DNA of 47,419 nucleotides from Paecilomyces variotii (Eukaryota), in assembly GCA_004022145.1 (NCBI GenBank), contig RCNU01000014.1; one strand, 5' to 3'. The notes beneath the pieces were generated by a model. That model saw only the letters and a program-made list of their open reading frames with translations, was not told the origin of the DNA and searched no databases. Positions 17,651 through 27,032 of this stretch are shown piece after piece. Position 1 is the stretch's first letter. The number at the start of each line of letters is the position of its first letter. A program made the position numbers and the translations under genes.

Positions 17651-19149
17651 TTAAGCAATTGGATCAAGCGTCAAACCAGCGAGAACTTCGTCTAAAACAG
17701 AAACATCGGCAAGATCCTCCAATCCCAGAACCAGTTTCTCAATGGCCTCTTGTCGCTTGTTATCGATTAAACCCCGAGTGAAAGTGCGAAACTTGGTCAA
17801 GATCTCTTCGTTTGACAATGGGGGATCGACACCAGTGGGTGCGTCCAGCGTCTTTGAGATACTGCTACCATCGTTGAATGTGATCGTGACGCGTTGTTCG
17901 AATTTTTGACCAAGCTCTGGTGTATAGTGGCATTCAGTCCTCTCCACAAGCTTCCATATAGAATCCCGATTCAAGAGATCACGATGGAATTGCTGCGGGA
18001 GGACTTGACCATCCACCAGCTGAGTAGCAGCCACATACGCGCAGCTCATCTGAGCCCCCGTTGCCGTCAGCGGTCGTGTAGCCGTCCATCCGCCGTGCTT
18101 GAAAGCTGCCTCCGACATCTCGATCTTAATATTAACGATTGAAGTCAAGTTTTCAAGCTCCTCTGGATGATCCTTCTGCAGCCCTGCCACGGTATCAATT
18201 GTGCAATGAGTCCCTGCCATCGAGGCGTGTGGCTTTACTCGAATTGCCTCTGTTTGCCATGTCTTACCAAGGCCCTTGACGAGCTCGTCTGCCAGATACG
18301 GTGGTTCTTTACCAGATCCCTCTCCGAACGCACTGAGGAATCCCCCGTATGGCTCCTCAAAGACGCGTTTGATCCCAGAATACCCGCCCTTGGCCAACAG
18401 AGCGGCGAAGAGACCATTTCTAGCTGCGAACCCATGTTGCATGCGCTTTGCCTCACTGCTGAATTGCGCTGACATTAGCCCACATGCCTGCGTGCAGGCA
18501 ATACCGACCGCGTCCTCAATTGCTTCAGTTGATAGATCCAGCAGTTTCCCAACAGATGCAGCACAGGCCGCATGGCCGAAGATCGGTCCCGAATGCCATC
18601 CTCTGGTCAGCATGTGGCTTCCATACAGACAGAGCCCGACTCGTGGTCCGACCTCGTATCCGACGATGGTCGACAATAGTAGATTCGAACCGGTGACTAC
18701 TGCGTTTCCACGGGCTTTCTGTTGAGATGCTGCAGCGAGTAGAGCAGGCAGCATGATGGAATTAGCATGCACCGGGGCGAGCGAATGCCAATCATCCAAC
18801 TCAAACGATTGCACTTCGGTGCTGTTGAGAAGAGCTGCGGGTAGTGGTCCGATTTTCTATGCCGACGTTAACAAGGACCACCTTCAGATCATATGGTGCT
18901 GACCTTGCCGTATCCCCACACAAGACAGTCACCAGCCGGTTCCATATCCAGAACGATGCTCACGGCTTTCTCGGTCCACGGTAAATGGGCCCCTACAATA
19001 GCACACCCAAAGCCATCTAGCATGAGGTATTTGGCGCGAGTCTTCAGGTCCTCGGGGATATCATCCAGCGTCAGACCGTCTACCCAAGAACATAGTTGGT
19101 GAGTGACACCTTCATCAGATTCGGCCCTTAGAACTGCCTTGGCTGCCAT
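17651..19149 (-). CDS. MmgE/PrpD family protein, cis-aconitate decarboxylase (CAD/IRG1)-like; 1 intron (18857-18903)
   Basis: 483 aa after splicing. GVTHQLCSW...DDIP..RAKYLMLDG, ELDDWHSLAPVH, RGWHSG, GIACTQACGLMSAQ, KRMQHGFAARNG, YGGFL, GKEPPY. Recognisably collinear with Aspergillus terreus CadA as recalled. Confidence 0.88.
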
Positions 19150-19263
19150 TATGAACACCGGTCGAATTTCTTAGTACGGACGAAACGATAGTAGTTCAAA
19201 TGGTTCGGGTAATGCATATCAGGGAGCCGACTTTATAAAGTGAAACAGCATCTTCCTCGCAGG

Positions 19264-19284
19264 CCGTTGACGGCCCGGCGGCGG
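19264..19284. promoter_or_regulatory. Two CCG-N4-CGG everted repeats upstream of the CAD-like gene
   Basis: CCG-TTGA-CGG (19264-19273, inside the palindrome GGCCG-N4-CGGCC) and CCG-GCGG-CGG (19275-19284), just upstream of a TATA-like element (~19234-19238). Confidence 0.6.
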
Positions 19285-19463
19285 AATGCGCTTTGACTGA
19301 GTTGATGGTGAGGTCTACTCTTGGCTCTTACAATGTTTGGTGATTACCTAGTAAGATTCTTGATCTCGTATCGGAAATACTTCACAATCCAGTTCTATCA
19401 TTGCATCGCCTACTCCACCCACAAAAATTATATCGGATCACTACTTCAAAGTCGCTATTCCTA

Positions 19464-20064
19464 TCACTCTGTCCTCTCCCAAATCCCAATCCAACACCCC
19501 CAGGAAATGACTTTATCCTGTAATCCCTGCCTTATTTCTTCCTTCGACGCAGGCCTTCTCAGTTTACTCTGATCGAGTGCCTCTTTCAAAGCCACAATCT
19601 GAAAGAAGTACCGATGAGGTCCATGACCTAGAAACCCTCTAGGGGGCATGTAAACAACCTTCCGCCGATTGAGTCCATACTTGAAACCCCCCACGAAGGT
19701 TGCATTCTCCCGTATTACCAACGGGACAAAAGTCGTCGTGGCAAAGACTGGTCTTGCTGGCGGGAATGCCGTAGTAGAGTCCGTGAACCACGGGTTCCGC
19801 GAGAGGCGCATCGGGATCTTCGAGAATGAGAAGATACTCAGCGGCATTCTGCTGCGGCGTCCAAGATAGCGTCGGGAAATGGCCTTCTTCAAATGAGCTG
19901 AATTTGGATGGGATGGGGGATCCTGAGGGTCCGATGGAACATTCCACCTCTATTGTTGGGGTGTGATGCAGGGCGAAGGGGGCTGATTTATGGAGTAGGC
20001 CGGCGTCGTGGCCACGACGGGTGTAGAGAAGCCAGGCCAGGGATCGTTCGATAAATTTCGACAT
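19464..20064 (-). pseudogene. PEBP (YbhB/YbcL-like) protein with a +1 frameshift (pseudogene or sequencing error)
   Basis: N-terminal half (EDPDAP..PVVHGLYYGIP) and C-terminal half (YMPPRGFLGHGPHRYFFQIVAL) are in different frames, meeting at ...CGT GGGGGG TTT CAAG (C6 run 19687-19692 on +). The span is 601 nt = 3n+1. Confidence 0.8.
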
Positions 20065-25780: not shown

Positions 25781-25904
25781 GTTGAGTCGTAGAGTTCAAG
25801 AATGATTCGTAATTGATTGAAATTGAAGGGACGATTTGTTCGCAGATAGAAATCTATAAATCCCCGAGCCTGAAGGCTCCTGATCAGCCTGGCACGGTAT
25901 CGGC

Positions 25905-25914
25905 CCGCTTGCGG
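25905..25914. promoter_or_regulatory. CCG-N4-CGG site in the middle of the hydratase/lyase divergent promoter
   Basis: CCG-CTTG-CGG within CGGCCCG-CTTG-CGGCCCG (25901-25918), roughly midway in a 240-bp intergenic region with TATA-like elements on either side. Confidence 0.6.
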
Positions 25915-26020
25915 CCCGGAGCCTTTCACCACTACCAGTACATAATAAGACACGGATTCAACCATTGTCATCACAACTCATTATACCAGGAAAGCCTTCC
26001 TGCATATACTACGCGTGAAA

Positions 26021-27032
26021 ATGCCATCACAGGCAGCAGCTAAGCTCCGCCAATTGCTGGCTGACGAGAGCAGAATCATTGTCTGCCCCGGTGTATACGA
26101 TGGTCTCACGGCCAGAATCGCTTTACGGGAAGGTTTCGATGCTTTGTACATGGTAAGACCCAACAGAGTCAACGCCTATCCCACGGGTCCATCCGCTCAT
26201 AGCCTTTTTCCAGACCGGTGCAGGAACGACAGCATCCCGACTCGGACAGCCCGACCTGGGAGTTATTACCCTTAATGAGATGCAAGGAAACGCGGAGATG
26301 ATCGCCAACCTGGACCCGTCAGTGCCGTTGATAGCGGATGCAGATACCGGGTTTGGAGGTAGGTGACATTGTATCTCTTCAAGACACTGGATGTGCAATA
26401 CTGACAGCCTAGGCTCTCTCATGGTCGCTCGCACCGTCACCGAATATATTCGTGCTGGAGTCGCTGCCCTCCATCTCGAAGACCAACCTACTACGAAACG
26501 CTGTGGCCATCTGCGCAACAAGCAAGTTGTATCCGAAGAAGAGTATCTCGGTCGTATCCGTGCTGCTGTCAATGCACGCAGTCGGGCACATGGTGACATT
26601 GTCCTGATTGCGCGGACGGATGCCCTGCAGTCCTTAGGGTATGAGGAGGCCATCTCGCGACTGAAAGGGGCTATCAGGCTCGGGGCGGATGTGGCCTTTT
26701 TGGAAGGCGTAACATCTAAGGAGGCTAAGATGGTCTGCGAGGACCTCAAGCCGACTCCCGTTCTGTTCAATGCGGTTCCTGGGGGCGTGTCTCCTGATCT
26801 TTCCGTGCAAGATGCTGAAGACCTTGGGTTTCGGATGATTATATTTCCTGCCTTGGCACTTGGGGCTGTCTACGGAGCCGTTCATGATGCCGTCAGGAAT
26901 CTCAAAAAGACGGGCACGCAAGTTGTCAGAGCGGGGAGCACTCCAAGGGACCTTTTCAATGTGGTGGGGTTGCAAGAAGCGATCGCTCTAGATATGGCCT
27001 CAGGGGGCCAACTGTATAAAAACGGTGTGTAA
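26021..27032 (+). CDS. Isocitrate lyase/PEP mutase superfamily C-C lyase, 2,3-dimethylmalate lyase / OAH-like subgroup; 2 introns
   Basis: CPGVYDGLTAR, LYM-TGAGTTAS.LG.PDLG, IADADTGFGG, LHLEDQ, KRCGHL, IARTDA, AFLEG, IIFP. Confidence 0.92.

Follow-up and report, generated by a model that had tools for sequence, protein, structure and literature searches.

The end segment of nicotinate fermentation in Eubacterium barkeri, reportedly described by Alhapel and colleagues in 2006, consists of Mii, a member of the PrpF family, the dimethylmaleate hydratase DmdAB and the 2,3-dimethylmalate lyase Dml. The E. barkeri set carries methylitaconate through dimethylmaleate and dimethylmalate to propionate and pyruvate. 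Itaconate, citraconate and mesaconate act as immunometabolites and antimicrobials and are also bulk bio-based chemicals, and in fungi only the coenzyme A (CoA)-dependent degradation of itaconate is established. A CoA-independent breakdown of itaconate-like branched acids is so far not known outside a few bacteria. In the available sections of one report, the genes of this pathway give no growth on citraconate or (R)-citramalate (PMC9875883), which leaves a niche for a hydratase/lyase route taking exactly those isomers. Maleidride biosynthesis, as outlined in the accessible part of the source, forms substituted maleic anhydrides via a MmgE/PrpD-family dehydratase and uses PEBPs as ancillary proteins; its core set comprises a polyketide synthase (PKS), a hydrolase similar to AlnB, an alkylcitrate synthase, ACDH, a KSI-like cyclase and a type 1 PEBP (PMC8851701). 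Here we analyze a 47,419-nucleotide stretch of DNA from Paecilomyces variotii (contig RCNU01000014.1 of assembly GCA_004022145.1), called the window below, which carries a cluster of five genes encoding a MmgE/PrpD-family protein, a PEBP, a Zn2Cys6 transcription factor, an aconitase-family hydratase and a C-C lyase. From their sequences and context, we propose, with a probability of roughly 0.6, that this cluster mediates the inducible, CoA-independent catabolism of a branched or unsaturated C5-C7 dicarboxylate of the itaconate/citraconate/methylitaconate/dimethylmaleate family.

Gene models were drawn from Pfam matches on stop-to-stop open reading frames (ORFs) and from full-length, near-identical database proteins, which were mapped onto the DNA (Table 1). 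Protein searches with single exons matched P. variotii proteins at 98-100% identity, consistent with a P. variotii-like eurotialean fungus. A preliminary description of the window had listed five genes at 17651-27032, and Pfam bears this out, returning MmgE/PrpD, PEBP, a Zn2Cys6 factor, a fused hydratase of the aconitase family and a lyase of the 2,3-dimethylmalate lyase (DMML)/oxaloacetate acetylhydrolase (OAH) branch. The MmgE/PrpD-family gene, hereafter PrpD-like, matches MmgE_PrpD_N (1.9e-46) and MmgE_PrpD_C (3.5e-37) at 17651-19170 on the minus strand, and the 483-aa protein P0241 maps on it with 99-100% identity. Exons with Aconitase (PF00330) and Aconitase_C (PF00694) matches lie at 22941-25001 on the minus strand, and the lyase gene has three exons (26021-26152, about 26202-26360 and 26412-27032) with a PEP_mutase/ICL Pfam match at 26157-27032. 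The 240-bp divergent promoter that had been claimed between hydratase and lyase is also present, bounded by start codons at 25780 (hydratase) and 26021 (lyase). The cluster lies in a 32-kb gene island of normal GC content (39-54%), at about 2-34 kb of the window, and the earlier statement that there is no PKS, citrate synthase or transporter is true by Pfam for this whole island. Pfam likewise found no CoA-transferase, CoA-ligase or CoA-lyase domain in the island, and none of the domains of the Ict/Ich/Ccl set (family III CoA-transferase, MaoC-type hydratase, HpcH/citrate-lyase-beta-type lyase).

Table 1. Genes and promoter elements of the cluster, with positions counted from the first nucleotide of the window.
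Feature	Position	Strand	Details
MmgE/PrpD-family gene (PrpD-like)	17651..19149	-	exons 19149-18904 and 18856-17651, 47-nt GT..AG intron; 483 aa
PrpD-like promoter element	19264..19284		overlapping CCG-N4-CGG sites; exact GGCCCG-N4-CGG at 19272-19284
PEBP (PF01161) gene	19464..20064	-	Pfam PBP/PEBP in two overlapping frames, 19464-20073
Divergent PEBP/transcription factor promoter (20065-20441), elements	20200-20212 and 20275-20287		both exact GGCCCG-N4-CGG
Zn2Cys6 transcription factor gene	20442..22720	+	Fungal_trans at 21129-21617; Cys6 motif; spliced RNA contigs
Fused large- and small-subunit aconitase-family hydro-lyase gene, IPMI/homoaconitase type	22941..25780	-	about 8 exons, 805 aa; mapping of P0002
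Divergent hydratase/lyase promoter	25781..26020		240 bp; exact GGCCCG-N4-CGG at 25902-25914
PEP-mutase/ICL-superfamily C-C lyase gene, DMML/OAH branch	26021..27032	+	298 aa; mapping of P0122

Synteny among fungi was read from the locus tags and contigs of database matches, from mis-fused gene models and from metagenome loci. The hydratase and lyase carry consecutive tags in P. variotii (DTO164E3_4742/4743), Aspergillus nanangensis (FE257_011755/56), Thermoascus thermophilus (760/759) and T. crustaceus (4116/4115), differ by 4 tags in Cosmosporella, lie together on a 4222-bp contig of Lachnellula willkommii, and are both listed on equal-size contigs in 13 further species. Three mis-fused models, from Talaromyces stipitatus and two Trichoderma spp., join the hydratase to a transcription factor that maps on the one in the window. 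The metagenome scan was made with an alignment of 20 hydratase orthologues, and 80 of 147 confirmed loci were kept. A FastTree phylogeny places the hydratase orthogroup in a clade of 127 out of 195 rows (SH-like support 92), and the lyase adjoins the hydratase in all five clade loci with enough flank (L004, L005, L055, L066 and L068), which amount to four distinct lyase-bearing loci as L066 and L068 are near-copies. The transcription factor is present in L004, L005, L044, L066, L067 and L068. Every tree-placed locus with an adjacent lyase or transcription factor falls in this clade except L023, a more distant eukaryotic locus with a PEP-mutase-family gene immediately upstream of the hydratase and an MFS gene close by; the tree does not include L067, which lacks the aligned region. 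Outside the clade are the lyase-less loci L062, L063 and L002, every bacterial row and P0001, a Fusarium protein with an Iso_dh fusion. The robust unit consists of the transcription factor, the hydratase and the lyase, whose synteny extends over several classes of filamentous ascomycetes. To this, PrpD-like and PEBP add an accessory pair, present in part of the Eurotiales and in at least one hypocrealean fungus. The tags of P. variotii run from DTO217A2_7550 (PrpD-like) to 7554 (lyase), the PrpD-like gene is near the hydratase gene in P. bovifimosum (N7515_008144 and N7515_008141, respectively) and Torrubiella hemipterigena (VHEMI09954/VHEMI09956), and fused PrpD and PEBP models of A. terreus (P0246) and A. 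ambiguus lie on contigs of the same size as that of the hydratase. The five-gene functional unit of the preliminary description is thus upheld for its three-gene core, syntenic across ascomycete classes, whereas the full arrangement is found in a subset of fungi only.

No further neighbors are conserved among the fungal loci; an MFS or sugar transporter adjoins the module in L005, L066 and L023. The lyase-less paralogue at L062 (8887-12603) has alongside it a sugar transporter, a 3-hydroxyisobutyrate-dehydrogenase-like gene and an SBD_N/NBD_C gene, presumably of the four-carbon acid-sugar kinase family.

Prokaryotic counterparts were collected with an alignment of 18 lyase orthologues from one genome per species, keeping the best 80 loci (41-49% identity), and neighbors were counted by searches with the window proteins and bacterial representatives. 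A LeuC/LeuD-type pair is next to the lyase in 22 of the 80 loci, and we found a PrpF-family gene in 10, a MmgE/PrpD gene in 8, a PEBP gene in 2, a TctC-type receptor in 10 and a GntR regulator in 7; another 29, mostly from Dehalococcoidia, have only an SDR gene and represent a different context. PrpF occurs without PrpD in 8 loci, PrpD without PrpF in 6 and the two jointly in 2, a distribution which fits either substitution of one for the other or consecutive steps, from an aconitate-type to an itaconate-type compound by decarboxylation and on to a maleate-type compound by isomerization. In Saccharothrix (L158, 4506-9403), a PrpD-like gene, the lyase, LeuC and LeuD are followed by a metallo-beta-lactamase-fold gene, and the PrpD-like protein shares 46% identity with its fungal counterpart over 470 aa (2e-132). 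According to Pfam, a Thermodesulfobacteriota locus (L146, 3359-8597) has PrpD, PrpF, lyase, LeuC and LeuD head to tail, and a PEBP gene directly follows LeuD in Bradyrhizobium (L099, 2698-9532; 7.4e-25) and Acidovorax (L130, 5108-12694; 1.8e-18). All four non-regulatory families of the fungal cluster recur in bacterial operons, and the neighborhood is conserved in two domains of life. The operons of L158, L146, L099 and L130, which also involve TctC receptors and GntR regulators, look like an uncharacterized aerobic pathway for branched unsaturated dicarboxylates and would be more tractable than the fungal cluster. Four Firmicute-type loci (Moorella, Sporomusaceae, Negativicutes and Bacillota; L126, L137, L148 and L157) combine a B12-binding-domain (mutase-like) gene, PrpF, MutL, the lyase and LeuCD, which we take to be the Mgm/Mii/Dml/DmdAB gene set of E. 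barkeri; the window lyase is 45% identical to the Dml-type lyase of L126. Proteobacterial loci have GntR, then lyase-LeuC-LeuD, then TctC and PrpF, without a mutase.

The best PDB matches of the hydratase are Methanocaldococcus jannaschii homoaconitase (1e-52) and IPMI/citramalate isomerase (1.6e-28) subunits, and mitochondrial aconitase is more distant, matching part of the protein at 4e-36. The small domain exceeds the cutoff of the NCBIfam 'LeuD/DmdB family' model (124.8 vs 108.95 bits), and the protein reached no NCBIfam equivalog model. Cys421 (in GACTT) and Cys485/Cys488 (in CSYC) are invariant in 20 hydratase orthologues, as expected for the [4Fe-4S] superfamily, and from known motifs we take these residues to be the ligands of the [4Fe-4S] cluster. 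A loop of the small domain is said, in work attributed to Jeyakanthan from 2010, to decide between an isopropyl and a carboxylate side chain. This loop reads YLVY, with Val, in M. jannaschii IPMI, YLRT, with Arg, in homoaconitase and FLMN in the window hydratase. Its pattern was found in 17 of 20 orthologues, of which 11 read F/Y-L-(I/V/M) and 6 replace the Leu by Ala or Ile; the third position is I, V or M in 16 of the 17, the exception being P0108 with Thr. Read by alignment, the specificity loop of the hydratase appears hydrophobic and of the IPMI type. The hydratase is probably the orthologue of AcoC of A. fumigatus (XP_747512); the A. fumigatus members of the hydratase search are P0086 and P0113. 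AcoC is presented, in the accessible portion of the source, as a remote third member of the aconitase-like proteins, sharing 15% identity with AcoA; in 2012 it was described as scarcely expressed on glucose or ethanol and was taken no further (PMC3556520).

The lyase scores 329.9 bits (1.1e-97) with A. niger DMML (3fa3), 327.9 bits with OAH (3lye) and about 157 bits with methylisocitrate lyases. It has the catalytic-Cys KRCGH gating loop of DMMLs of the PEP-mutase/ICL fold, as do 120 of 120 homologues. Joosten in 2008 and Chen in 2010 reportedly identified an active-site Ser (IMIFSF) as the marker of OAH. The window lyase has Pro at this position, and so do 109 of 109 matched homologues, which separates it from the OAH of Cryphonectria parasitica (3LYE) despite near-equal similarity. 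The best solved relative, A. niger DMML (An07g08390; 3FA3/3FA4), is about 60% identical and has the same KRCGH and the Pro. However, it is a paralogue and not an orthologue, since another A. niger protein, P0132, is 80% identical to the window lyase, and the pocket loop reads N-A-V-P-G-G in the window lyase but N-M-V-E-H-G in A. niger DMML. The 2009 study of A. niger DMML is said to have left the enzyme's own pathway in fungi unknown. The best NCBIfam models for the lyase are those of prpB methylisocitrate lyases, under the cutoff (224.8 vs 354.4 bits).

The promoters of the cluster share a sequence element. GGCCCG-N4-CGG occurs exactly 4 times in the 47-kb window (at 19272, 20200, 20275 and 25902), always within the three cluster promoters, which total about 0.9 kb; the chance expectation is 0.10, and 4 was reached in 0 of 100 shuffles. 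The shorter CCG-N4-CGG, whose everted-repeat spacing is the one bound by Leu3, is found 10 times vs 3.2 +/- 1.8 expected (10 reached in 0 of 100 shuffles), and half of these sites (5/10) lie within the three promoters. The gene arrangement is above chance, because it recurs in other fungi and in prokaryotes and because the promoters share this 13-position element. The cluster transcription factor has the features of a fungal Zn2Cys6 pathway regulator, namely an intact Cys6 motif, which spans exons 1 and 2 and is split by the first intron, a fungal_trans region and a conserved adjacency to the hydratase. Spliced GT..AG joints in RNA contigs of two runs, X6 and X9, define its introns at 20542-20600, 21097-21148, 21587-21646, 21911-21972 and 22493-22555, and an in-frame stop suggests a sixth near 20710-20770. 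This dedicated activator would probably act through GGCCCG-N4-CGG in all three promoters, inducing the hydratase and the lyase.

For the PrpD-like protein, the best solved relatives are the cis-aconitate decarboxylases CAD/IRG1 (4.4e-29), followed by IDS epimerase, and no 2-methylcitrate dehydratase structure was matched at E<=1e-5. NCBIfam PrpD models gave 31-44 bits vs cutoffs of 575-950, which does not place the protein with the characterized PrpD, McdA or ACDH. The available part of the hCAD study names eight active-site residues, Asp93, Thr97, His103, His159, Lys207, Lys272, His277 and Tyr318 (PMC6789909). PrpD-like keeps four of these (His103, His159, Lys207 and Lys272), which the same part of the study describes as common to the epimerase and mostly also to the dehydratase (PMC6789909). 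A. terreus CAD itself differs at 4 of the 8 hCAD positions, so that the 4/8 of PrpD-like lowers the chance of decarboxylase activity without excluding it. The original label 'CAD-like' is right in that CAD is the nearest solved relative, but the four residues kept are family-generic, and an assignment as decarboxylase is not supported since the family also has isomerases and epimerases. In the accessible sections of a further report, the MmgE/PrpD family includes a methylsuccinate isomerase and uses an enolate mechanism on a C4-dicarboxylate core (PMC12290011), which would make a 1,3-proton shift on itaconate or methylitaconate chemically natural for PrpD-like.

From these families and their context we infer the chemistry, the substrate class and the PrpD-like reaction as follows. 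The [4Fe-4S] IPMI-type hydro-lyase would hydrate a cis-2-alkyl- or 2,3-dialkyl-butenedioate to a (2R)-alkylmalate, and the DMML-type lyase would cleave the C2-C3 bond of this product, giving pyruvate (or another 2-oxoacid) and acetate, propionate or a longer acid. The MmgE/PrpD enzyme would act upstream, probably supplying the cis-alkylmaleate. It could do so by an enolate-type 1,3-proton shift from itaconate to citraconate, as the PrpF-family Mii does in bacteria, or by decarboxylation of an aconitate-type tricarboxylate, in which protonation at the carbon that loses CO2 would yield citraconate directly; epimerization is the third option. The PEBP may be an auxiliary component of the same chemistry. 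The CoA-independent hydratase/lyase route put forward in the preliminary description is consistent with the IPMI-type loop, with a KRCGH lyase without the OAH Ser and with the lack of CoA-enzyme domains in the island, although none of these features singles out one substrate.

Several observations weigh against our proposal, some of which concern the hydratase and the overall gene content. The window has no PrpF-type isomerase and no transporter by Pfam. The nearest bacterial relatives of the fungal hydratase, which are fused and 42-46% identical (L009-L061 and others), have an HMGL-like/HCS_D2 synthase gene directly before them in 13 of 28 loci and an Iso_dh gene nearby in 9 of 28, and are therefore probably aconitases or homoaconitases. 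The hydratases beside the bacterial lyases are about 27-33% identical to the fungal one, so that their pairing with the lyase is analogous, not orthologous; their small-subunit loops are too varied to read. Because these lyase-linked hydratases are not orthologues of the fungal enzyme, an IPMI-type hydratase has come to stand beside a DMML-type lyase on more than one occasion, which argues for chemistry rather than shared descent. A methylcitrate-cycle-like route for an alkylcitrate, homocitrate or hydroxycitrate, in which PrpD-like dehydrates, the aconitase-type enzyme rehydrates to the iso-form and the lyase splits the product, would suit the homocitrate/Re-citrate-synthase-like and Iso_dh neighbors of these bacterial cousins. 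It would also suit the enzyme superfamilies, which are those of PrpD, aconitase and PrpB, the prpB models that come first, though below cutoff, for the lyase, and the TctC 'tricarboxylate' receptors that flank 10 of the 80 prokaryotic lyase loci. However, the hydratase has a hydrophobic loop residue in place of the Arg of homoaconitase, and the synthase-linked cousins have a different loop, FCHL. Moreover, the lyase is far closer to DMML/OAH (about 330 bits) than to methylisocitrate lyases, PrpD-like matches no classical 2-methylcitrate dehydratase structure at the threshold given above, and the hydratase and lyase occur without an adjacent PrpD-like gene in most fungi, so that we regard this route as unlikely. 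As a separate observation, the synthase-dehydratase-dehydrogenase set at the bacterial fused-hydratase loci is that of a Re-citrate-synthase-type branch of the tricarboxylic acid cycle or of 2-oxoacid elongation.

The remaining difficulties for a CoA-independent dicarboxylate pathway concern the accessory pair and the promoter element. PrpD and PEBP genes lie apart from the module in P. hispanicum, T. proteolyticus, Cosmosporella, T. atroroseus and Rasamsonia byssochlamydoides, either on a different contig or far off by tag number, and neither was found in any of the 80 metagenome loci, where six fungal orthogroup loci have usable flanks. Compared with the hCAD residues listed in the part of the source available, PrpD-like has Glu for Asp93, a gap at Thr97, Met for His277 and Phe for Tyr318, and by alignment it lacks the Tyr that the accessible sections of two reports assign to the isomerase and the epimerase (PMC6789909, PMC12290011). 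The exact CCG-N4-CGG element is absent from the lyase-hydratase spacers of L004, L005, L055, L066 and L074; CCG-N3-CGG and CCG-N5-CGG variants in those spacers, e.g. CCGTAGCGGCG in L066 and L074, come without a chance control and were not used as evidence.

This strain carries a frameshift in the PEBP gene itself, one additional G in a G-run near 19685-19690, which removes the conserved C-terminal half of the protein; the PEBP part of A. terreus P0246 maps in both window frames. The base at 19684 is missing in runs X1, X3 and X6 and is kept in the RNA run X9, which is otherwise identical to the window, so that the frameshift is real and strain-specific and the PEBP is probably dispensable. An atlas search with the PEBP part matched only 'PEBP-like protein, Ascomycota' (score 0.86), and the transcript ends near 19378, at a poly-T loose end of a contig. 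Runs X1 and X3, although labeled as metatranscriptomes, gave 5-11 kb unspliced contigs over introns and spacers (window 12000-30000) and therefore represent DNA of a P. variotii-like fungus, not transcription. The spliced contigs of X6 and X9 cover two upstream transcription factor genes, the PEBP gene and the cluster transcription factor; the PrpD-like, hydratase and lyase genes have no contig, which is a matter of coverage and says nothing about their expression.

These data could mean that only the transcription factor, hydratase and lyase belong together and that PrpD-like and PEBP are unrelated neighbors in this lineage, as the pair is absent beside the trio in all flanked metagenome fungal loci and lies elsewhere in at least five named species, and the PEBP is broken here. 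We find this improbable, since the same order is found in a Penicillium and the genes are within two tags of each other in a hypocrealean fungus, the PrpD and PEBP/transcription factor promoters hold three of the four exact GGCCCG-N4-CGG elements, and PrpD (8/80) and PEBP (2/80) recur in prokaryotic lyase-hydratase operons, including the 46%-identical PrpD-like protein.

The adjacency of PrpD-like and PEBP also bears on a biosynthetic origin, in which the cluster would be a remnant or module of alkylmaleic-anhydride/maleidride-type chemistry, or of 2-oxoacid chain elongation like AMT6-8 of the AM-toxin cluster. Maleidride core clusters have a MmgE/PrpD-family alkylcitrate dehydratase and a PEBP-like protein, and Paecilomyces spp. 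make maleidrides, according to the accessible part of the source (PMC8851701). The AM-toxin cluster, in the portion of the report available, has an 'aconitase family protein' beside IPMS- and IPMDH-like genes (PMC5561558), and the Fusarium paralogue P0001 is fused to an Iso_dh domain. We nevertheless hold such an origin to be very improbable. Pfam found no PKS, alkylcitrate synthase, KSI-like cyclase, IPMS-like synthase or dehydrogenase of this kind in the 32-kb island, the lyase is a cleavage enzyme, PrpD-like is nearer to CAD and IDS epimerase than to 2-methylcitrate dehydratases, P0001 is outside the hydratase orthogroup, and the prokaryotic counterparts look catabolic, with binding proteins and GntR/LysR regulators.

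A broader version of the catabolic reading, which we put forward as a tentative and on balance doubtful idea, is that filamentous fungi and several bacterial lineages share a CoA-independent route for the itaconate family. In this route, a MmgE/PrpD enzyme would replace the PrpF-type isomerase in making the cis-alkylmaleate, by a 1,3-proton shift on itaconate or methylitaconate or by a citraconate-forming decarboxylation of (methyl)aconitate, the PEBP would be a dedicated component, and AcoC and a DMML-like lyase would finish the conversion to pyruvate and acetate or propionate. If true, this would be the first defined metabolic role for the PEBP fold and would explain why fungi carry DMML-type lyases. 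That MmgE/PrpD and PEBP genes keep turning up in the same operons, from actinomycetes to proteobacteria, suggests two unassigned reactions, which are testable on defined substrates. If the catabolic reading holds, it would also give a function to the orphan aconitase-family protein AcoC of Aspergillus, Penicillium, Trichoderma and many other fungi, and to the paralogue group of A. niger DMML, and the module would be a target in the improvement of strains producing itaconate or citramalate.

The rest of the island encodes, by Pfam, an aldehyde dehydrogenase, an amidohydrolase-FAH-alpha/beta-hydrolase, two Zn2Cys6 proteins, another alpha/beta hydrolase and a LysM protein. At about 7600-11477 on the plus strand, amidohydrolase (HxH exon 8082-8420, C-terminal Amidohydro_1), FAA-hydrolase and alpha/beta-hydrolase domains are continuous in frame (ORFs 9257-10075 and 9816-11477) and look like one tri-domain fusion gene, predicted to encode roughly 1100 aa. 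Its FAH part is nearest to HpcE-type decarboxylases/isomerases (6.6e-59 to 8sky) and its amidohydrolase part to carboxypeptidase- and ochratoxinase-like enzymes. The aldehyde dehydrogenase and tri-domain genes were considered as members of the same pathway as the cluster and rejected, their only tie being relaxed CCG-N4-CGG sites at 5968 and 7452. The two Zn2Cys6 genes, 12421-14550 on the minus strand and 14578-16729 on the plus strand, stand head to head with about 30 bp between their ORFs and have spliced RNA over both; the introns of the second are at 15605-15666, 16496-16548 and 16666-16728. Between the aldehyde dehydrogenase gene and the next gene, a long A/T homopolymer at 6290-6350 reads as poly-Lys or poly-Phe in ORFs. 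At 28160-28290 (about 130 bp), the contigs break in all four runs, leaving loose ends on either side, and the summed depth rises two- to three-fold, which is probably a short dispersed repeat; ARAGORN found no tRNA in the window, so this is not a tRNA gene. The flanks of the island (1-2000 and 34000-47419) are AT-rich, with 17-27% GC and without any ORF of at least 110 aa, and their composition suggests an isochore-like structure of the kind that repeat-induced point mutation leaves.

A search of the full-text literature, with supplements not covered, found no prior description of the fungal module and no fungal dimethylmaleate, citraconate or maleate hydratase. The described systems resemble the cluster in different ways. 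PrpD, aconitase and PrpB of the methylcitrate cycle belong to the same superfamilies and follow the same logical order of dehydratase/isomerase, hydro-lyase and C-C lyase, but the fungal lyase is of the DMML/OAH branch, the hydratase is of the IPMI/HACN type and PrpD-like is distant from 2-methylcitrate dehydratases. CoA-dependent itaconate degradation (Ict/Ich/Ccl, and IctA/IchA/CclA in A. niger) also deals with C5 branched dicarboxylates and in principle yields pyruvate and a C2 unit; unlike the route proposed here, it does not take citraconate or (R)-citramalate, as far as the available sections of the sources state (PMC9875883; PMC6862759). Maleidride clusters share the adjacent MmgE/PrpD enzyme and PEBP and the chemistry of substituted maleates and maleic anhydrides, in the portion of the source available (PMC8851701), whereas the island has only these two, with PKS, hydrolase, citrate synthase and NTF2-like/KSI-like cyclase absent by Pfam. 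The end segment of E. barkeri nicotinate fermentation likewise joins an aconitase-family LeuCD-type hydratase to a PEP-mutase/ICL-family lyase, and the fungal small domain passes the LeuD/DmdB model. In contrast to that segment, the fungal cluster belongs to a eukaryote and its genes contain introns, the hydratase is one fused chain that comes from a different branch of its family, and a MmgE/PrpD protein, a PEBP and a Zn2Cys6 regulator stand in place of the B12 mutase and PrpF. By analogy, the fungal cluster would correspond to the bacterial isomerase/hydratase/lyase segment, as a eukaryotic version assembled in a different way.

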